Source of the DNA: Candidatus Helarchaeota archaeon
GTDB lineage: Archaea; Asgardarchaeota; Lokiarchaeia; Helarchaeales; RDOG01
NCBI GenBank assembly: GCA_019058315.1
Contig: JAHPZH010000001.1
Location: 32,001-96,000 of the forward strand
Direction of reading: 5' to 3'
Length of the DNA stretch: 64,000 nt
Shown here: piece after piece, positions 1 through 11,531 of the stretch
Numbering within the stretch: position 1 is the first letter of the stretch
Layout of the letters: the number at the start of each line of letters is the position of its first letter
The notes under the pieces: model-generated
What the model was told of the DNA's origin: nothing
Database searches by the model: none
Seen by the model: only the letters and a program-made list of their open reading frames with translations
Program-made: the position numbers and the translations under genes

Positions 1-2
1 AA

Positions 3-3000
3 TTTGAAGCAGAAATGACCAATAGAACTGCAATTTATATCCCCTTTCCCCAAGCAGTTCCCCGAAAAGCAGTTATTGATACTGAAAATTGCCTATATTT
101 TCAAAAAGGCATTTGTAAAGCATGCGAAAAATTTTGTCAAGCAGGAGCTATAGACTTCGAACAAAAAGATGAAGAAATTGAAGTCGAAGTCGCTTCAATA
201 GTTGTTGCTACAGGATTTGATTTAATTGATCCTTCTACAGTATCTGCTCGATTTGGTTATAAAAAATATCCCAATGTGGTGACTAGCCTTCAATATGAGC
301 GGATTCTGAGTGCCTCAGGACCTTATGGTGGAGAAGTATTGCGTCCTTCTGATAAAAAACATCCGCATAAAATAGCATTTATGTTATGTGTGGGCAGTCG
401 TAACACAGATAAGAAAGCCAAGTCTTATTGTAGTAAATTCTGTTGCATGTATAGTTGTAAGGATTCAATTATCACTAAGGAACATGCACCAGATGTAGAT
501 GTGACAATTTTTTATAATGACTTGAGAACTATTGGAAAAGGCCATGAGGAATTTTTTGTAAGAGCTGAAAATGAGTATGGTATTAATTTCATTAATGGTT
601 TACCTGCTTATATTGAAGAAGATCCTTTAACAAATGATCTGATTGTTCAATATGAAAATATCAAAGAGGGAACCATTCAAACTGAAACGTTCAATATGAT
701 TATTCTAGCACCAGCTGTAATTCCAAGAAGTGATTCAACTGAATTAGGGAAAATTTTAGGCATTAAAGTTGATGAAAACGGTTTTTTCGAGCCTACTAAT
801 TCAGCCAATATTCTTGAATCATCTGTTGAAGGAATATATCTTGTCGGATCTTGTCAGAGTCCAGAAGATATCTCACATTCGGTTGCAAAAGCATGTGGTG
901 CTTCGGCTCTAGCGGGTTCACGAGGTCGTCCTGATTTTGAAGTTGGAAAGAAGCTAGAAGTTCCAGAAAGGATAGTTTTACCCACTGATCCCCCAAGGAT
1001 AGGTGTATTTATCTGTCATTGTGGAATAAATATTGGTGGGGTTGTTGATGTCCCAAAAGTGGTAGAATATGTAAAAACACTCCCCAATGTTGTTTATGCT
1101 ACTGAAAATCTCTATACCTGTTCTGAAGATTCTCAAGTTCTTATAAAAGAGGCAATTGAAAAAAATGACCTTAATCGAGTAATCGTAGCAGCATGTACAC
1201 CAAGAACTCATGAGCCATTATTTAGGGAAACAATCAAAGAGGTTGGCTTAAATCCATATCTATTTACATTTGCAAGTATACGAGAACTTGTTTCTTGGGT
1301 TCATATGAAAGAACCTGAAGCCGCTACTGATAAAGCTAAAGATATGGTAAGAATGGCGATTTCACGATCAAGGTATTTAGAACCTCAAACTACAATTGAA
1401 GCTGATGTGAGACAATCTGTTCTAGTCATAGGAGGCGGAATCGCAGGGTTAAGTGCAGCTAATGCAATAGGAATTAGGGGCTATCGTGTGCATCTGATCG
1501 AACAAAAAGATCATTTAGGAGGTCTATTAACCGAACTTGATTCGATCAATTTTGAACGAATTAATGCTAAGGATTTTATCAACCAAGTAATCGAAAATGT
1601 AAAAGCTAATGCCCAAATAAAAATCTACACCAATACCATTATTAAAGACATTCATGGTTCAATTGGAGATTTTAATGTTGACCTTAATATTAATGGAGAA
1701 ATAAAAAACGTTAAAGTTGGGGCTATAATTGTAGCAGCAGGATCTGACCTATCTAAAGATGGTATATTTGGTTATGGAACTCATCCAAATATTTACACTC
1801 AACTTGAATTCATTAAGAAATTCGAAAATAAGGAATTTAAAGATGGTGAAAATTTCGCATTTATTCAGTGTGCAGGACAACGAGATCCAGAAGGATTGAC
1901 CTATTGTTCGAACATTTGTTGTGAAGTTGCAATAAAAAGTTCGATGCAGATTAAAGAAATCTATCCTAATTCTAATGTGTGTATCTTATATCGTGATATA
2001 CGAGTAGAACCTGAAGGGGAAGAATATTATCGAAAATCAAGAGAAAATACAGCTTATTTAAAATACGTAGAAAAACCAAGAGTTTCAGTTGGTTCTGATA
2101 ATAAAATTATGATTCAGGTCAAGAATGTATTGACTGGTTCAGATATAGAATTGCCTGTTGATCATTTAATTCTTGCAACTCCAATGATAGCTTATCCAGA
2201 TAATAAAAAACTTTCCGAATTTTTGAAAGTTCCTCTAGGACCGATGGGATTCTTCTTGGAAGCTCATCCAAAGCTAAGACCCGTCGATTTTGCTACAGAT
2301 GGAATTTTTGTTTGTGGTGCAGCTCAAAGTCCTAAAAATGTAGCTGATTCCATAAGTCAAGCATTAGGTGCTGCTTCTAGAGCGTTGCGATTCATTGAAA
2401 GAGGAAAGGTTGAGAGTGAAGCCATCACGGCGTGGGTGGACCCAAATCTATGTATAAGTTGCGGAATGTGTCAACATATTTGTCCATATGGTGCAATTGG
2501 AATTAGAGTTGAGGAAGGTAAAATAGTTTCCGAAGTAAATCAATTATTGTGTAAAGGTTGTGGAACATGTAGTGTTGTATGCCCTGCCCAAGCCATTACA
2601 ATGCGCCATTATGGTATGGAACCCATATTAGATATGGTTCATGAAGCAGTAGCGATACAACCACCTGAAGATGAACCAAGAGTTGTAGCTTTCTTGTGTA
2701 ATTGGTGTTGTTACGCCGGCGCAGATAATGCGGGTGTTAGTCGATTTCAATATCCACCTAATATCAGAGTGATAAGATTAATGTGTAGTGGTCGTGTTGA
2801 TCCACTATTTGTTCTCGAAGCATTTGCAAGTGGCGCAGATGGTGTATTCATCGGAGGATGCCACATAGGAGATTGTCACTATATTTCGGGCAACGAAAAG
2901 GCATATCGGAGAGTCATAAAGCTTAAAAAAACATTAGAAGAGGTGGGCATCGATCCTGCAAGATTTAAGTTAGAATGGGTATCGGCTAGTGAAGGCAAGA

Positions 3001-3089
3001 TTTTCCAAAAAGTAATAACTGAATTTGTTCAAGAGTTGAAAAAATTAGGTCCTAGTAAATTAAGACCAAAAATACTTGGAGGTAATTAA
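3..3089 (+). CDS. hdrA: Large HdrA-like FAD/4Fe-4S flavoprotein (duplicated HdrA modules) with C-terminal MvhD domain fused; 5'-partial
   Basis: Frame is open from the window edge. RIGVFICHCG, VIVAACTPRTHE, VIGGGIAG FAD motif, ferredoxin CxxCxxC motifs, and C-terminal FLCNWCCYAGAD...CSGRV...GCHIGDCHY (MvhD). Confidence 0.9.
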   Translation, partial: FEAEMTNRTAIYIPFPQAVPRKAVIDTENCLYFQKGICKACEKFCQAGAIDFEQKDEEIEVEVASIVVATGFDLIDPSTVSARFGYKKYPNVVTSLQYERILSASGPYGGEVLRPSDKKHPHKIAFMLCVGSRNTDKKAKSYCSKFCCMYSCKDSIITKEHAPDVDVTIFYNDLRTIGKGHEEFFVRAENEYGINFINGLPAYIEEDPLTNDLIVQYENIKEGTIQTETFNMIILAPAVIPRSDSTELGKILGIKVDENGFFEPTNSANILESSVEGIYLVGSCQSPEDISHSVAKACGASALAGSRGRPDFEVGKKLEVPERIVLPTDPPRIGVFICHCGINIGGVVDVPKVVEYVKTLPNVVYATENLYTCSEDSQVLIKEAIEKNDLNRVIVAACTPRTHEPLFRETIKEVGLNPYLFTFASIRELVSWVHMKEPEAATDKAKDMVRMAISRSRYLEPQTTIEADVRQSVLVIGGGIAGLSAANAIGIRGYRVHLIEQKDHLGGLLTELDSINFERINAKDFINQVIENVKANAQIKIYTNTIIKDIHGSIGDFNVDLNINGEIKNVKVGAIIVAAGSDLSKDGIFGYGTHPNIYTQLEFIKKFENKEFKDGENFAFIQCAGQRDPEGLTYCSNICCEVAIKSSMQIKEIYPNSNVCILYRDIRVEPEGEEYYRKSRENTAYLKYVEKPRVSVGSDNKIMIQVKNVLTGSDIELPVDHLILATPMIAYPDNKKLSEFLKVPLGPMGFFLEAHPKLRPVDFATDGIFVCGAAQSPKNVADSISQALGAASRALRFIERGKVESEAITAWVDPNLCISCGMCQHICPYGAIGIRVEEGKIVSEVNQLLCKGCGTCSVVCPAQAITMRHYGMEPILDMVHEAVAIQPPEDEPRVVAFLCNWCCYAGADNAGVSRFQYPPNIRVIRLMCSGRVDPLFVLEAFASGADGVFIGGCHIGDCHYISGNEKAYRRVIKLKKTLEEVGIDPARFKLEWVSASEGKIFQKVITEFVQELKKLGPSKLRPKILGGN

Positions 3090-3092
3090 AAA

Positions 3093-3761
3093 ATGATAAT
3101 AACTAAAGAAAAACCACTAGAAGAAATATATGCAATGTTAGAACCTCATAAAAAAATATTAATAATAGGTTGTGATGGTTGTTTTCAACCCCCACGCGGA
3201 CTTAAACAAGCAAATTTAACAGCAAAATTAATACAAATTAAGAGAAAACTTGAAAATAAAGGATTCGCGGCAAAAACTGCCACGGTTTTAAGACAATGCG
3301 ATGATGACATAACTGTTTCAACACTCAGACCAATATTGGATGACGAACAATTTGATGCAATTTTATCCCTAGCATGTGGTGTGGGAGTTCAAACGGTTGC
3401 TGAAATTTACGATATACCTGTCTATCCTGCTCAAAATACTTTATTTATGGGATCAAAAATAGGTGATGAGTTTCTCGAAAAATGCGCAGCATGTGGTGAT
3501 TGCCTTTTGGGCTATACTGGAGGTCTCTGTCCTATCGCTAATTGTGCAAAATCATTGGTTAATGGTCCATGTGGTGGCCCAATTGATGGGAAATGCGAAG
3601 TAGGTGAATACAAAAATCAATGTGCTTGGATAGAGATATATAAAAGATTAAATTCGCGTCCTGGTGGTTTAGAACTATTCATGAAATTTAGGACACCTGT
3701 TGATTATAGAAAACGTAGCAATCCACGAAAATCCGCAGAAGAGGTGATCGAGATTGAGTGA
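3093..3761 (+). CDS. metV: Methylenetetrahydrofolate reductase small subunit (MetV; MTHFR C-terminal-domain protein)
   Basis: IIGCDGC, LRQCD, SLACGVGVQ, CAACGDCLL..TGGLCPIANCAKSLVNGPCGG...C...CAW; overlaps the metF start. Confidence 0.88.
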   Translation: MIITKEKPLEEIYAMLEPHKKILIIGCDGCFQPPRGLKQANLTAKLIQIKRKLENKGFAAKTATVLRQCDDDITVSTLRPILDDEQFDAILSLACGVGVQTVAEIYDIPVYPAQNTLFMGSKIGDEFLEKCAACGDCLLGYTGGLCPIANCAKSLVNGPCGGPIDGKCEVGEYKNQCAWIEIYKRLNSRPGGLELFMKFRTPVDYRKRSNPRKSAEEVIEIE

Positions 3762-4686
3762 TAGAATATTCAGTAATTTAATGCGAGAAATTAAAGCTGG
3801 AAGATTCGCGTTTACAGGAGAATTGGAACCAGAGAAAACAACAAACTTACATGAATTAATTGAAGGTGCTAAAGTCATGAAGGACGCAGTGGTTGCTGCC
3901 AATGTCACGGATAATCCTCAATCAATGGCTTATATGTCTAGTCTAGTTGCTTCCTACTCCGTTCAAAAAGAATCTGGATTAGAAATGGTTTATCAATTGC
4001 GGTGTTCTGATAGAAATCGTATTGCATTAATATCGGATCTACTGGGAGCCGGTCATCTCGGAATTAGGAACATCCTTGCTCTCACGGGAGATCATACAGC
4101 TCTTGGGGATACACCTGAAGCAAAACCTGTTTTTGATCTTGATTCAGGTCAACTTTGTTATCTCATTCGTAAAATGGTTGACGAAGGTACTGATTTAAAT
4201 GGTAATGAAATCCATGACCCTCCAAAGTACCATGTTGGAGTAGCTGGAAATCCAAATTGCGTACCAATGGAAGCCGAAATATTAAAAATAGGCAGAAAAA
4301 TCCAAGCAGGAGCCGAATTCGTTCAAACTCAAGTAATTTATGACATTGAATTAGCAAAAAAATTCATAAAGGAAATAGAGCGTTATAAAACTCCTGTTTT
4401 AATCGGCATCTTTCCAATGAAATCCTATGGTGTAGCAAAATATTTTGATCAATATATTCCTGGTGTGAGCGTTCCTAAAGAGATACTTGAAAATATGAAA
4501 GCAGTGAAAAAATCAAATATGGAGAAGAAAGAGAAAAAACAAAAATATGCGGAGATTAACTTCGAATTTTTCGTTCCATTTATACGAGAACTGATGAAAA
4601 ACACTAAAGCCGCAGGAGTTCACGTCATGGCTGTTGCATGGGAACCAATCGTGGTTCAATTAATCAAAAGAGCCCGTGGCGAATAA
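3754..4686 (+). CDS. metF: Methylenetetrahydrofolate reductase (MetF)
   Basis: TGELEP, NVTDNP, CSDRNRIAL, NILALTGD, KIQAGAEFVQTQ, GVHVMA motifs. Confidence 0.92.
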   Translation: MSDRIFSNLMREIKAGRFAFTGELEPEKTTNLHELIEGAKVMKDAVVAANVTDNPQSMAYMSSLVASYSVQKESGLEMVYQLRCSDRNRIALISDLLGAGHLGIRNILALTGDHTALGDTPEAKPVFDLDSGQLCYLIRKMVDEGTDLNGNEIHDPPKYHVGVAGNPNCVPMEAEILKIGRKIQAGAEFVQTQVIYDIELAKKFIKEIERYKTPVLIGIFPMKSYGVAKYFDQYIPGVSVPKEILENMKAVKKSNMEKKEKKQKYAEINFEFFVPFIRELMKNTKAAGVHVMAVAWEPIVVQLIKRARGE

Positions 4687-5821: not shown

Positions 5822-6271
5822 ATGGAATTGATTCAAAAAAGTATTGAAGTAAAACCGGTTATTGAAATACCAAAACTAAAATACCGAAATATTTTGTTAG
5901 ATATAATCTATTTATATTCCACAGTTGAACAAGAAAAATTAGAACAAACAAAAAAATATCCTGTAAAAGGCTCTCGATGTACTAAAAGAAGAGTACCCTC
6001 ATTAGCACCTGTTATGGCGATACTAAATAGAATGCAATATGTGGATGAAAAAATTAATTATTTAAGGGCTTATATAGACGGTCTTGAAAGAACAAGAGAA
6101 ACAATTTATTCTCAGAGAAGTCTTCCAAATATAATTGGTCAAGAAGATTATAGAGCACAAATGAGTGTCTATTTACAGGTTTATCCAGAAATGCTCAAGC
6201 TAGCTCGAAACAAACTTAGAGAGCTAGAAGATGAAAGATACGAAAACAAGACCCTAATTCATAAATTTTAA
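5822..6271 (+). CDS. Hypothetical helical protein
   Basis: 149-aa ORF with ATG start; no recognisable motif. Confidence 0.65.
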   Translation: MELIQKSIEVKPVIEIPKLKYRNILLDIIYLYSTVEQEKLEQTKKYPVKGSRCTKRRVPSLAPVMAILNRMQYVDEKINYLRAYIDGLERTRETIYSQRSLPNIIGQEDYRAQMSVYLQVYPEMLKLARNKLRELEDERYENKTLIHKF

Positions 6272-6406: not shown

Positions 6407-6808
6407 TTAAACCACTGGAATAGTTAATTTGAAAAGCTGAATATGCTTTTTAAAACTACTTCGACTCAATAGCTTATAAAAACCAGATTGAGTCGCTTTT
6501 TGCATATTCCCAGGGTCTAGAAAAACTTTGCGATCTAGAGCTGCATATAAAAGACGATCTCCATAGTCAACCAAATCTGTTGCCTCTAAAATATGCCGTA
6601 AAATGGAGAAATCAGAAAATTTTACCATCATTTCCCCTTTTCTATCAGTCAATTTAGCGATTTTTATAAAAAGTTGTTTCTCAATTCTTGTAATTTTAAT
6701 AATACAGTTATCTACTTTAATAAAAATAGTATCATCTTTAATAGGTCTCAATTTTTTAAATCTAGAAAATAAATCCTCATATAAGTCAACAACTTCTTGA
6801 CAATCCAT
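6407..6808 (-). CDS. Hypothetical protein (weak resemblance to the SCP2-like lipid-binding fold)
   Basis: 133-aa ORF divergent from the BAR-like triplet. The helix / beta-strand run / helix pattern is only suggestive. Confidence 0.6.
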   Translation of the reverse strand: MDCQEVVDLYEDLFSRFKKLRPIKDDTIFIKVDNCIIKITRIEKQLFIKIAKLTDRKGEMMVKFSDFSILRHILEATDLVDYGDRLLYAALDRKVFLDPGNMQKATQSGFYKLLSRSSFKKHIQLFKLTIPVV

Positions 6809-6951
6809 GTCTTTATTTTTAATTAATCAAATTATAAATTTATTTTTAACAAATAATACTTCAAAAAAATTTTAAGAAATGCAAATAATTAAAATATTCA
6901 ATTAAATTAGAAACAAATCAAAAACTATACTATTTACATATGGTGAAAAAA

Positions 6952-7617
6952 ATGCTTTTAGATATTGAAAGGCTGATTAATGAAGACATAGACTTAAGAA
7001 ATGAAATGCGTTCCATTTTCAGAAAGCTAGAAGATGGTTATGGCGATATGATTGAGGTATATGAAAAATTTGAAAAACCATTAATACAAATAATCGATAC
7101 TTTAAAAGAATACGCCAGACAAACCTCAGAAGACCAACAAGATTCCCCATATTTCGCCCTTGCTAAAAAATATGAGTCTTTAATTGACGCACAAAAGCAA
7201 CTCGCTCATACTGTAACAAATGATGTGATATTATTACTTCAAGGAATTGAGAACAAATCAGAACTTTTAAACGATTCGATTAAAGATTTAAATTCCGCTG
7301 CGAAAAACGCTAGAAAATTAAGGAACAAAATTAATAAATTAGATGAACAAATCGAGGAATTAAAAGCTAAAGGTAAACCTGAAAAGGTTCCCAAAAAAGA
7401 AAGCGAAAAACAGATTAAAACATCTGAATTCAATCTTGCGAGGGATAGACTTATTGAAGCAAAAGGGAAGTTTGAAGGTACTCTAGGAAATTTCAACATG
7501 GAACGGGACGATAGTCTAAAAGATGCTTTAGAAAAGTTAGCAGAAGCAGAAAACAAGTATGTAGATGCCTTGAAAGAAATAATTGACGAAGAAAAAGATG
7601 TTGCTGGAAAGCTCTAA
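6952..7617 (+). CDS. BAR-domain-like all-helical protein, paralogue 1
   Basis: ATG 6952 follows a GGTGA SD. Three long amphipathic helices, GKPEK tip, C-terminal F.....NFNMERD..LK.AL pattern; aligns end to end with the next two ORFs. Confidence 0.7.
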   Translation: MLLDIERLINEDIDLRNEMRSIFRKLEDGYGDMIEVYEKFEKPLIQIIDTLKEYARQTSEDQQDSPYFALAKKYESLIDAQKQLAHTVTNDVILLLQGIENKSELLNDSIKDLNSAAKNARKLRNKINKLDEQIEELKAKGKPEKVPKKESEKQIKTSEFNLARDRLIEAKGKFEGTLGNFNMERDDSLKDALEKLAEAENKYVDALKEIIDEEKDVAGKL

Positions 7618-7744
7618 TTATCCATTTATTTTTAACCACTTTTAATTTTTTTAGGATTTTAAATTTCAGATTTAATAAATTAACAAATAATAAAAGGAAA
7701 GAAATCAAATAAATAATTAAAAAATTGGATTGGGTGATATAAAA

Positions 7745-8491
7745 ATGAGTTATGATATTGACACGATTATTGCTGAAGATATCGACGTAAAAAATGAATT
7801 TAATACTATTTTTAAGAACCTTGAAGATGGTTTTAAAGGAATTTTAAGTGTCTATGAAAAACTTGAAAAACCTTATTTACAAATCAGTGAAAATCTTAAG
7901 GAATATGCTAAAGCGACTTCTGAATCTGGGAAAGAAGAATCTTCGCCGTTTTTTAGCCTTGGAAAAAAATATGAAACACTTATAGATAGTCATAAAGAGC
8001 TTTCTCACGATATTACAGACGATGTAGTAATTGTTTTGCAGACCTTAGTTAGTAAATCTGTACTTCTCAATGAAGAATTCAAAGTTTTAAATTCTAGCGT
8101 GAAAGATGTAAGAAATTTGAGAAATAAAATCGCTAAATTAGAGGTTCAAATAGAAGAAGCACATGGTAAAGGTAAACCTGATAAAGCTACAAAAAAGGAA
8201 GCTGAAAAGCAAATAAAACAGGATGAATTAGATTCAGCAAACACTAAATTAAAAAGTAAAAAAGAACATTTTGATAAAACAATCGCAGATTTTAATGAAG
8301 AACGGGATGAAATGTTGAAAAAAGCATTAAAGAAGTTGATAACAGCGGAAAATACACAAATAAAGGCAATAAATGGAATAATTGGTGGATTAGAGAAAGC
8401 TTCTGGAGAAAAAGTCGCTAAAAAGAAAGCCCCTGTCAAAGAAGAACCAGTAGAAGAAGCCCCTGCAGAAGAAGAAGACACTACTGTATAA
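7745..8491 (+). CDS. BAR-domain-like all-helical protein, paralogue 2 (acidic C-terminal tail)
   Basis: ATG 7745 follows GGGTGA. Shared EDIDVKNE, LEDG, LKEYA, SPFF, KKYE, DDV, GKPDK, DFNEERD motifs; extra KKAPVKEEPVEEAPAEEEDTTV tail. Confidence 0.7.
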   Translation: MSYDIDTIIAEDIDVKNEFNTIFKNLEDGFKGILSVYEKLEKPYLQISENLKEYAKATSESGKEESSPFFSLGKKYETLIDSHKELSHDITDDVVIVLQTLVSKSVLLNEEFKVLNSSVKDVRNLRNKIAKLEVQIEEAHGKGKPDKATKKEAEKQIKQDELDSANTKLKSKKEHFDKTIADFNEERDEMLKKALKKLITAENTQIKAINGIIGGLEKASGEKVAKKKAPVKEEPVEEAPAEEEDTTV

Positions 8492-8738
8492 TTAATACAA
8501 ATGGACTACACAAAAAATTCAAATATTACAATCAATTTCATATTTTTATTTTTTTTTTAGAAAATCTTGTTTTGTCTCAATTTTTTTTTTTAGATTCACA
8601 TTTTCTTATGTTCTATATCCTTTAAATTAAAAAAATGATTGGAGATTAAAATAAAATTAATAAAGTATAAAACTATAATAAAAGGAAATAGCAAATTAAA
8701 AATTAAAAGATTAAAGAATTAAAAATGGTGAAAATAAA

Positions 8739-9410
8739 ATGAGTTTTGATCTTGAACAATTAATTTCTGAAGATGTTGACGTAAAAAATGAAATGCATAA
8801 TATTTTCAAGCAGCTAGAAGATGGTTTTCAAGATATACTAAAAAATACTGAAAAATTCGAAGGTCCCTATAATAAAATTATTGAAAATTTAAAAGATTAT
8901 GCGAGAGTAACTACAACGACTGGCAACCAAGAGGATTCGCCATTCTTTGATGTGGCAAAAAAATATGAGGGACTTCTTGATGGTCATAAAGAATATATTC
9001 ATGATGTAACTGATGATGTAATTTTAGTATTGCAGCAATTGATAGGAAAATCCAAATTATTGGATGAAGCAATCAAGGAATTAAGTTCCGCTGCAAAAGA
9101 TGCTAGAAAATTAAAAAATAAACTTGAAAAAATCGATGAAGATATTTCAAACGCGCAAGCTCAAGGTAAATCTGATAAAGCAACAAAAAAACTAGCTGAA
9201 AAAGAAACGAAAACTGCAGAATTTAACTCTGCAAAAGATAAACTAGCAAGCATTTTGGAACGATTTAATGTTAAAATAGATGATTTTAATTCGGAACGAG
9301 ACGAATTAATGAAGAAATCATTAGGTGATTTAATCGCTTCAGAAAAGAAATTAATAGAAGCAATGCAATCAGTGCATGATGAGCTTGATAAAGCAGCGGG
9401 AAGCCTTTAA
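8739..9410 (+). CDS. BAR-domain-like all-helical protein, paralogue 3
   Basis: GGTGA upstream; same motif series (EDVDVKNE, LEDG, LKDYA, SPFF, KKYE, DDV, GKSDK, DFNSERD). Confidence 0.7.
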   Translation: MSFDLEQLISEDVDVKNEMHNIFKQLEDGFQDILKNTEKFEGPYNKIIENLKDYARVTTTTGNQEDSPFFDVAKKYEGLLDGHKEYIHDVTDDVILVLQQLIGKSKLLDEAIKELSSAAKDARKLKNKLEKIDEDISNAQAQGKSDKATKKLAEKETKTAEFNSAKDKLASILERFNVKIDDFNSERDELMKKSLGDLIASEKKLIEAMQSVHDELDKAAGSL

Positions 9411-9519: not shown

Positions 9520-9555
9520 GTCATTTCATAACACAAGTTTATTTATGAAATTCAT
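9520..9555 (-). promoter_or_regulatory. Putative eukaryote-type SECIS element overlapping the hdrA stop codon
   Basis: Minus-strand RNA AUGA-AUUUCAUAAAU-AAA-CUUGUG-UUAUGAAAU-GA-C: AUGA/GA core, perfect 9-bp stem (AUUUCAUAA/UUAUGAAAU), AAA 11 nt after AUGA; lies directly after a gene with two Cys-position TGAs. Confidence 0.75.
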
Positions 9556-11531
9556 TCTCTTTTTATTGAGATTTCTGTCTCTTCGGCGAAAAGATTGTCG
9601 ATATACGACTCAAATTGTGTATTTCCATATGCTTTAAGGGTCATAGCGTTATTCTTACATATAGCTGCACATGCTCCACAACCACGACAGAACATTTCAT
9701 TTACCTTTATTTTATTATTTTCCAATGATATTGCTTGGTAAGGACAAATAATCACGCATTGTCCACATCTGCTGCATATTTCATCATCTACTTTTGCGCG
9801 TATTAATTCCATTTCATAGACTCCTGTTGTCATCGGAATTGCAGCCGAAGCAGCAGCTCCTTTTCCTTGATTAACAGTTGCATCAACCGCTTTGGGACCT
9901 TGAGCAACACCTGCGACATAAATTCCGGGTATTTTAGTCCTTACTGGATCTAATCGTTGGTGAAATTCTTTTATAAATCCATCAGGGCTTTTTTCCAATC
10001 GTAATTGTTCTGCTATCTTCTCTGTGCCTTCAGAAGGTTCCATAGCAACTGAAAGAACTACCAATTCTGCTTCCAACTTTTTGATCTCTCCATTAAGAGT
10101 ATCTTCAACGCGTAAAATTACATTTTTTGTTTCCGGATCCTCCTTAACCTCTGCAATATTTCCACGGAGAAATTTAATCCCTAATTCTCGCATACGTTTG
10201 TAATATTCTTCGTATGCTTTTCCAGGTGTCCTAATATCCATGTAACAAATTGTAATATCCGTATCTGGGTTTTCATTTTTTAATAGACCAGCATTTTTAA
10301 TAGCTACAAGACAGCAAACTCCAGCACTGCAATATTCATTAGTTTCAACGCTTCTTGAACCAACACATTGTATCATGACTACTTTACTAGGGAATTTATC
10401 ATCAGAAATTCTCCTAAATTCACCAAAAGTAGGTCCATTTGGGCTTAAAAGACGTTCCAATTGCAACTGGGTTATAACATTTTCGTACTTACCAAAACCA
10501 AATGCACCTGCTGGATCAAAAGTTTTGAACCCACTTGCTACAATTATAGTTCCTACGTTAATTGTCAATTCTTCAGGTTGTTGATCGAAATCAATTGCTT
10601 CTTCCTCGCATTCCCGAACACATAATCGGCATTTAATACACTTATCTTCATCTATTGTGTATTTTAATGGGACAGCTTGCGGAAATAACGTGTATATAGC
10701 TCTTCTGGTGTTATACCCGAAATTAAATTCGTTAGGTACTTGAATCGGACATACTTCGTCACAGGCCCCACAACCTGTACATTTATCTTCATTCACAAAT
10801 CTCGGTTTTTTCAAGATTTTCACTTGAAAATTACCGATATATCCCTGTATTTCCTTTATTTCACTGTATGTAATTAATTCAATATTAGGGTGGCTACCAG
10901 TTTCAAGCATTAGCGGTCCAAGAATTCAGATACAACATTCGTCTGTGGGGAAAATTCGATCGAACATTGCAGTATGTCCACCAATCGTGGTAGATTTTTC
11001 CACTAAGTACACTTTAAATCCTTGATCTGCGAGACTTAGGGCGCTAGTCATCCCAGCAATACCACCGCCAACAACTAATACTTTAGGATCTATATCAACC
11101 CGTTTAATCGGAATCAATTCCAGGAGCGCAGCTTTATGAACTGCTGCTCTTAGCAAATCCTTTGCCATATTAGTCGCTATCTTTGGTTCATTACGATGAA
11201 CATATGAATCATGCTCTCGAATATTTACGAACTCAAGCATACTGGGGTCTAATCCGTTATCTTTTAGAACCCTTCGGAAAACTCTTTGGTGTGTCTGAGG
11301 AGTGCAAGCAGCAACTAATATACGATTCAACCCAAATTCCTTGATCTTTTCCGCAATTAAGGCAGCACCAGCTTCGGTACACATGGAAATATATTCCTCA
11401 GAAACTGATACTAATGGTAGTGATTTTGCGTATTTGACGACTTCTGGGACATTAATAATATCGGCAATATTTTTACCTCAGCGACAAACAAAAACTCCAA
11501 TGCGAATAGTATCTTCAGTCAACGCTCTCAT
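9552..11531 (-). CDS. hdrA: Heterodisulfide reductase subunit A, selenoprotein with two in-frame TGA (Sec) codons at 11478-11480 and 10926-10928
   Basis: One 660-codon frame from ATG 11531 (or TTG 11522): RIGVFVCR-TGA-GKNIA ... RIFPTDECCI-TGA-ILGPLM. Both TGAs align to Cys in the paralogue at 18173 (IGVYICECGINIA; FPTLDCSACILTPKM). Joins track ORFs 10926-11384 and 9552-10910. Confidence 0.9.

Follow-up and report, generated by a model that had tools for sequence, protein, structure and literature searches.

Organisation of the triplet

The locus described here lies in a 64,000-nucleotide (nt) stretch of Candidatus Helarchaeota archaeon DNA (GenBank assembly GCA_019058315.1, contig JAHPZH010000001.1, positions 32,001 to 96,000 of the forward strand), referred to below as the window, and consists of three neighbouring open reading frames (ORFs) on one strand, designated A, B and C, whose products resemble BAR-domain proteins (Table 1). 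The products are all-helical, with pairwise identities of 48-52% (B 50% and C 48% identical to A) and a mean column identity of 67% in their alignment. No transmembrane helix is found in A-C, the best 19-residue Kyte-Doolittle window reaching 1.46, and a hydrophobic N-terminal segment is likewise lacking; the proteins are presumably cytoplasmic. B ends in an acidic, Pro/Glu-rich tail of about 25 residues that is probably disordered. Helix 1 closes with the motif LK[ED]YA, and the motifs SP[FY]F..KKYE, the tip GK[PS][DE]K and FN.ERD..[LM]K..L are likewise legible in the A/B/C alignment. A first-pass annotation of the sequence had proposed these motifs, as well as three adjacent helical paralogues of 220-250 amino acids (aa) without membrane spans, and both descriptions hold.

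Table 1. Coordinates of the BAR-like genes, their spacers and neighbouring or related features (window positions unless another locus is named)
Feature	Position	Strand	Product or remark
HdrA-MvhD fusion, MetV-like, MetF	1-4686	+	1024-aa fusion, then MetV-like (DUF5981) and MetF (MTHFR); 3-nt gap and overlap
149-aa ORF	5822-6271	+	no Pfam match, no usable Atlas match
SCP2-like neighbour	6407-6808	-	133 aa; divergent from A; AlphaFold2 pLDDT 79
BAR paralogue A	6952-7617	+	221 aa (225 aa from the upstream ATG at 6940)
A-B spacer	7618-7744	+	127 nt; AT-rich, T-runs; sequence read directly
BAR paralogue B	7745-8491 (ORF also read from 7730)	+	248 aa; identical to database protein P0004
B-C spacer	8492-8738	+	247 nt; AT-rich, two T-runs of 10-11 bases
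BAR paralogue C	8739-9410	+	223 aa
HdrA-like gene	9552-11531	-	659 codons with TGA read as selenocysteine
BAR paralogue D	G000:C3:1104408-1105064 (L004 1495-2160)	-	unlinked, about 1.06 Mb from the triplet on the same contig

A, B and C are confirmed as real genes at the sequence level, because orthologues of each occur in other Helarchaeota metagenome-assembled genomes (MAGs), with E-values of 1e-63 to 1e-113. A GGTGA motif resembling a Shine-Dalgarno sequence stands 5-7 nt upstream of the ATG codons at 6952, 7745 and 8739, at 6942-6946 for A (5 nt ahead of its ATG), 7733-7737 for B and 8727-8731 for C. The start of A at 6952, as first annotated, is favoured over that at 6940, because of the GGTGA spacing and because 221 aa is the length of the orthologues. 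The sequence ATAATAAAAGGAAA is common to the A-B and B-C spacers, at -55 to -64. The length of the spacers, their AT-richness and their long T-runs suggest that A, B and C are probably separate transcription units, and the A-B spacer may hold a terminator and a separate promoter. Among sequencing runs, only the probable source metagenome contains the stretch in full, and no RNA run is listed as containing it.

Predicted fold and structural relatives

The structure of A was predicted by AlphaFold2 from the 21-sequence alignment of its family (A2, also used as a profile), with a mean predicted local distance difference test (pLDDT) score of 92.8. The model contains three long helices at residues 23-62, 70-143 and 147-224, with only a short helix at 9-14 ahead of helix 1. 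Searched against the PDB with Foldseek, its best 50 matches all belong to the BAR superfamily, including SNX1-SNX5, the MIM IMD, arfaptin, endophilin, amphiphysin and Lsp1. An independent search with VIA-align over 48,161 representative chains placed BAR, F-BAR, I-BAR, eisosome or MiniBAR domains at all of ranks 1-28 (Z 14.3-10.5, 177-216 residues aligned); since long helical bundles reach Z of about 13-14 by chance, according to VIA-align's own note, Z alone is weak and the fold call rests on the homogeneity of the lists and on whole-domain coverage. PspA/ESCRT-III or MCP-type folds do not occur among the matches listed (50 Foldseek rows and VIA-align), and these folds, together with the simple two-helix coiled coil that the first-pass annotation had also named as contrary outcomes, are missing from the top matches. 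An ESM Atlas shape search, which lends weak support only, returned a mixed list comprising an F-BAR 'nervous wreck' cluster, plant DUF632 (TM-score 0.73) and helical proteins of type VII secretion system (T7SS) and WXG100 type.

Ranking among BAR subfamilies in VIA-align falls within ties (Z 12-14), and each of the closest known systems resembles A-C in part. The arfaptin BAR (1i49), a stand-alone BAR dimer, gives the highest Z to A (14.3; root-mean-square deviation (rmsd) 4.4, 193 residues aligned, identity 11%), but arfaptin binds Arf/Rac GTPases, and no such partner is indicated for A-C. SNX-BAR/Vps5 (6h7w, 8a1g; PF09325) gives the best TM-score (0.71-0.72 to 6h7w_M, rmsd 3.9, 201 columns; VIA-align Z 13.0, 209 residues), yet it carries a PX domain N-terminal to the BAR part, whereas A-C consist of the BAR part alone, without PX domain or retromer context; searches made without length limits found close relatives of A-C of 170-276 aa throughout. 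SNX-BAR/Vps5 proteins work as paralogue heterodimers, an analogy to which the first-pass annotation had pointed. Eukaryotic CIBAR1/FAM92A (9uhd, 8ceg; PF06730) is stand-alone and about 210-220 residues long, as are A-C, and matches A with a Foldseek E of 2.6e-4 (9uhd, a value shared by the FCHO2 F-BAR), a TM-score of 0.60-0.63, Z 12.4 (FAM92A1) and an identity of about 13%, but its eukaryotic roles at the cilium and the mitochondrial membrane have no counterpart for A-C. Eisosome Lsp1 (3plt_A) aligns over 177 residues with rmsd 2.9 and a Z of 12.3, which is level with other BAR types, and shows no sequence link.

Sequence homology to BAR families

Single-sequence searches with phmmer against PDB sequences found nothing meaningful for A-C, and the homology evidence comes from the family profile. 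In an exhaustive HMMER search of 1.84 billion representative proteins, A2 returned only 14 matches, those outside the family being a second Helarchaeota family and the proteins P0154, P0156 and P0157. P0154 passes Pfam FAM92 (E 2.9e-6); P0156, a Trypanosoma rangeli 'phosphoinositide-binding protein', passes PX and Vps5 and is matched on its BAR part; P0157 passes BAR_3, FAM92, BAR_2 and Arfaptin. These FAM92, Vps5+PX and BAR_3 proteins are matched in register over about 150-190 positions with library-wide E-values of 5e-5 to 4e-4, figures inflated for Lys/Glu-rich helices, because the top match of A2 in a PDB sequence search was a de novo designed coiled coil (E 1.2e-6). The designed protein was taken as a composition artefact, and a shuffled and reversed composition control was therefore applied: the real targets score 29-48 bits, while 300 shuffles of each stay at or below 10.3 bits and reversal of the sequences, which preserves helical periodicity, leaves no more than 1.4 bits. 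The second, more distant Helarchaeota family is itself BAR-like (L005 1441-2100 (+), P0151/P0152; about 219-244 aa, tip SGKGDK), is named 'coiled-coil domain-containing protein' or hypothetical by NCBI, and has no Pfam BAR match.

The profile also connects A-C to a family of BAR proteins already annotated in Asgard archaea. In the Lokiarchaeia genome G215, A2 finds a 211-aa protein with a passing PF06730 score of 39.5 bits; it is a member of a large family to which NCBI gives the name 'BAR domain-containing protein'. When A2 is compared with this family profile to profile by hhalign, the probability is 72% and E is 3.3e-5 across 161 columns, and LK.YA, the Lys-rich tip and FN.E come into register. 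This Asgard FAM92/CIBAR-like family (profile A3, for example P0027) is likewise stand-alone, of about 210-220 aa and of the same class, and shares with A-C the LK.YA at the end of helix 1, the Lys-rich tip between helices 2 and 3 and the FN of helix 3; it differs in passing PF06730, whereas the A-C family fails all Pfam BAR models. In language-model features an archaeal FAM92 cluster is nearest (score 0.92, 185 features shared), and eukaryotic clusters of BIN3, FAM92 and arfaptin come next. On profile evidence, then, the A-C family is related to FAM92/CIBAR but is not assignable to PF06730.

Predicted homodimer and distribution of charge

Complex prediction covered the homodimer of A, in three runs and with three controls. 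The interface score ipSAE was 0.77 in the three runs and 0.00 in the best control, with at least 97% contact agreement and a partner pLDDT of 88. Among proteins solved as one-chain pairs, 20 of 30 attain this ipSAE mark, compared with 1 of 23 among those solved as single chains; such a prediction shows likeness to BAR dimers, not binding. Helix 1 (residues 22-61) and the last third of helix 3 (190-225) form the predicted interface, in which contacts are antiparallel (for example 54-29, 215-201 and 208-208), with dyads near residues 41 and 208. The predicted arrangement corresponds to the canonical six-helix core of BAR dimers, in which the hairpins of helices 2 and 3 become the distal tips.

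Basic residues are concentrated in these hairpins, where residues 121-135 carry a net charge of +4. Conserved Lys or Arg residues occur at positions 106, 115, 122, 125, 126, 128, 130, 133, 144, 146, 149, 152, 153, 157, 160, 168, 170, 175 and 177, and this cluster falls in the distal arms of the model.

Distribution and missing annotation

A three-sequence profile, used in a word-indexed search of 5.8 billion proteins, recovered 22 relatives, all of 177-276 aa; those with names are all listed as 'hypothetical protein' and come from MAGs of Candidatus Helarchaeota or Promethearchaeota. Among 400 genomes of the phylum, A2 matches strongly only the source genome, with four copies, and one genome of the same family distantly (E 5e-12). 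The A-C family is thus confined to few Helarchaeota MAGs, with three to four paralogues per genome. As single sequences, none of its 21 members matches any Pfam BAR-clan model, the scans giving only sub-threshold coiled-coil noise (T3SSipB, KIF9, DUF2203); none matches PF06730 (gathering threshold 23.6 bits) with E up to 1. Blank single-sequence scans of this kind explain why the genes are filed as 'hypothetical'.

The FAM92-like BAR family has a different distribution, occurring in 53 of the 400 phylum genomes, usually as a single copy and confined to three other families belonging to the same class; the source genome and its order lack it. Neither the A3 profile nor a six-frame search with PF06730 finds a match in the source genome, which is 94% complete. 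The A-C family may therefore be the divergent counterpart of the FAM92-like BAR in its lineage. In other Lokiarchaeia genomes, the FAM92-like profile gives two matches inside one ORF of 448-467 aa both at G136:C69:4824-6104 and at G137:C1:4484267-4485481, and one partial match at G134:C1:2597515-2598039; these ORFs look like single-chain tandem BAR proteins of about 450 aa.

Paralogues and the locus in related genomes

Four orthogroups, corresponding to A, B, C and D, separate in a maximum-likelihood tree whose backbone is unresolved, and every one of them includes orthologues from other MAGs. The orthologues of A are P0005 (84% identical) and P0013; that of B, P0006, holds the same middle position in the related locus L010 (GCA_013375355.1); those of C are L010 9441-10106, P0008 and P0011. 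The A-B-C triplet is kept in the same order and orientation in L010, while L012 carries A and C, L009 carries A together with a B-like gene in convergent orientation, whose product has a longer acidic tail, and L013 carries one BAR copy. A 221-aa ORF at L009 1676-2341, considered as a further paralogue by its length, was rejected as a WD40-like protein. The sequences suggest that the triplet arose by duplications older than the divergence of at least two related genomes.

Between A, B and C, identity is 44-54% at interface residues and 49-51% elsewhere in the protein; the interface of D is more diverged than theirs. D adjoins an ADP-ribosylglycohydrolase gene, as does its orthologue on metagenome contig L014, where a myo-inositol-1-phosphate synthase gene also lies about 1.4 kb (two genes) upstream.

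Neighbouring genes

The 133-aa protein encoded divergently from A has no Pfam match, and its predicted structure points to a lipid-binding-type fold. About 43 top Foldseek rows are all SCP2-fold, as are the top 17 VIA-align rows (Z 8.1-5.0, unrelated folds lying at Z of about 4 and below); the matches include SCP2, UbiJ-SCP2, AF1534 and SCP2-type domains of larger enzymes, and the product is predicted to be SCP2-like. Its gene adjoins BAR genes in L009, L010, L012 and L013. Homologues in two more distant genomes, G128 and G126, have no BAR neighbour, one being flanked by metallophosphoesterase-like and CBS-like genes and the other by a 397-aa ORF that appears acyltransferase-like when read by eye. 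A general SCP2-BAR linkage was rejected on this ground, and the association of the SCP2-like gene with the triplet is an uncertain lead.

The other flanking genes encode HdrA-MvhD, MetV, MetF, an AsnC regulator, a second HdrA, MvhD and a leucine-rich repeat (LRR) protein, none with a membrane-remodelling function, and no gene for a GTPase, actin, profilin or gelsolin adjoins the triplet. The genes at the start of the window look like an Hdr-linked methylene-tetrahydrofolate reductase operon. ORFs of 142-147 aa stand between the AsnC-type and SCP2-like genes in L009, L010, L012 and L013, at the place corresponding by position to the 149-aa ORF of the window. Downstream of C, an HdrA-like gene is split by standard ORF calling; with TGA read as selenocysteine it forms one frame, in which TGA occurs at codon 18 (VCR-U-G) and at codon 202 (DECCI-U-ILGP), and likely encodes a two-selenocysteine HdrA.

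Interpretation and alternative explanations

The fold, the profile homology and the predicted antiparallel dimer agree with the three-helix BAR-like architecture that the first-pass annotation had read from the sequence. In this Helarchaeota-like Asgard archaeon, A, B and C are very probably BAR-domain proteins of the classical type, divergent and stand-alone. Each monomer is predicted to form a three-helix antiparallel coiled coil, and two monomers to associate in antiparallel fashion by way of helix 1 and the final third of helix 3, giving a central six-helix bundle and placing the helix 2-3 hairpins, with their KGKP[DE]K tip and the Lys/Arg cluster at about 106-177, at the two distal ends. 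By analogy with eukaryotic BAR domains, the dimers might bind anionic membrane by these basic arms and, once bound, sense, stabilise or generate curvature, possibly recruiting partners; a role of A-C in bending membranes and shaping protrusions or vesicles may be proposed on the same analogy. The paralogues would then be specialised, homodimer-capable copies rather than parts of an obligate hetero-complex.

Several findings weigh against this interpretation. In addition to the chance Z-values of helical bundles, the match of A2 to a designed coiled coil, the failure of all 21 members against Pfam BAR-clan models and the empty six-frame PF06730 search described above, A-C are net acidic, with isoelectric points of 4.9-5.4. 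An amphipathic basic N-terminal helix H0 of the N-BAR type is not found in the family, since the N-terminus is acidic: residues 1-15 carry a family-average net charge of -2.6, with D8, E10 and E15 conserved. The dimer score, moreover, may in part reflect the prediction model's memory of solved BAR dimers. The blank Pfam scans, the spurious designed coiled-coil match and the high chance Z-values would also suit generic three-helix coiled coils without BAR ancestry or function, resembling BAR domains through helical geometry and Lys/Glu-rich composition. Such an origin is nevertheless very improbable in view of the wide separation between real and shuffled or reversed targets, the in-register matches to Pfam-passing BAR proteins, the homogeneity of the fold lists for BAR and the use of the BAR interface in the predicted dimer.

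Granted a BAR fold, the three proteins might assemble as heterodimers or as a copolymer lattice, forming one hetero-oligomeric membrane scaffold in the manner of Vps5-Vps17, SNX1-SNX5 or Pil1-Lsp1. Their adjacency on the same strand, the conserved order and orientation in GCA_013375355.1 and the separate orthogroup of each, so that all three are retained, are consistent with such an assembly, and conservative substitution of hydrophobic interface positions among A, B and C makes mixed dimers sterically plausible. An obligate hetero-complex is argued against by the confident homodimer of A and by interface conservation equal to that of the rest of the protein, with no sign of complementary co-variation; the copy number at the locus also varies among relatives, and the T-run-bearing spacers suggest separate transcription. 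The evidence on hetero-oligomerisation is accordingly neutral to mildly adverse, and a scaffold of this kind is considered rather unlikely. A somewhat smaller chance is given to A-C serving as adaptors for small GTPases or actin in the manner of arfaptin or IRSp53, with membrane shaping secondary or absent. Arfaptin is the best VIA-align match, I-BAR/IMD actin-binding domains occur among both the Foldseek and VIA-align matches, and the acidic tail of B could bind partners; a 2026 study of Lokiactin co-immunoprecipitates from Lokiarchaeum ossiferum detected two BAR-domain proteins, below significance, together with an ARF GTPase (PMC13716822). Against an adaptor function stand the neighbours of the triplet, which are Hdr/Mvh, MetFV, AsnC and LRR genes in place of GTPase or cytoskeletal ones, the tied ranking of BAR subfamilies and the conserved basic distal arms, which suit lipid binding at least equally. 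An extended possibility, regarded as quite improbable, is that the triplet and its SCP2-like neighbour form a clade-specific membrane-remodelling module, with a mixed BAR lattice, the B tail recruiting partners and the SCP2-like protein supplying or sensing lipid, and that this module would represent a prokaryotic precursor of eukaryotic heteromeric BAR coats. Classical BAR proteins acting as homodimer-capable paralogues are therefore the preferred interpretation.

Relation to known prokaryotic BAR proteins and significance

The BAR fold is used by eukaryotes to sense and bend membranes. Prokaryotic precedent is provided by BdpA of Shewanella oneidensis, which is reported to have BAR-domain-like membrane-sculpting activity and to be linked to membrane vesicles and to membrane structures on the micrometre scale in the bacterium that makes it (PMC8687657); this bacterial protein is likened to A-C by that description, and A-C differ in having no hydrophobic N-terminal segment. 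In Asgard MAGs, Eme et al. (2023) reported Vps5-BAR homologues, fused to Vps28 in Thorarchaeia (PMC10307638). The literature searched contained no paper combining Asgard with FAM92 and no biochemical characterisation of an Asgard BAR protein. The novelty originally claimed for the triplet was overstated, because BAR proteins have already been reported and annotated in Asgard archaea (PMC10307638, PMC13716822 and NCBI protein names). What is new is an unannotated, Pfam-invisible, lineage-specific BAR expansion, whose fold and likely function are not.

BAR proteins are part of the eukaryote-like membrane toolkit of Asgard archaea; domain-based surveys under-count these proteins, as the 21 members escaping Pfam illustrate; a Helarchaeota-like lineage seemingly without BAR proteins actually carries three or four. 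The paralogue set, including an acidic-tailed copy, an unlinked copy and a neighbour of lipid-binding fold, offers a compact system in which to ask whether archaea were the first to duplicate BAR proteins and possibly to assemble them into hetero-complexes, as is typical of eukaryotic coats.

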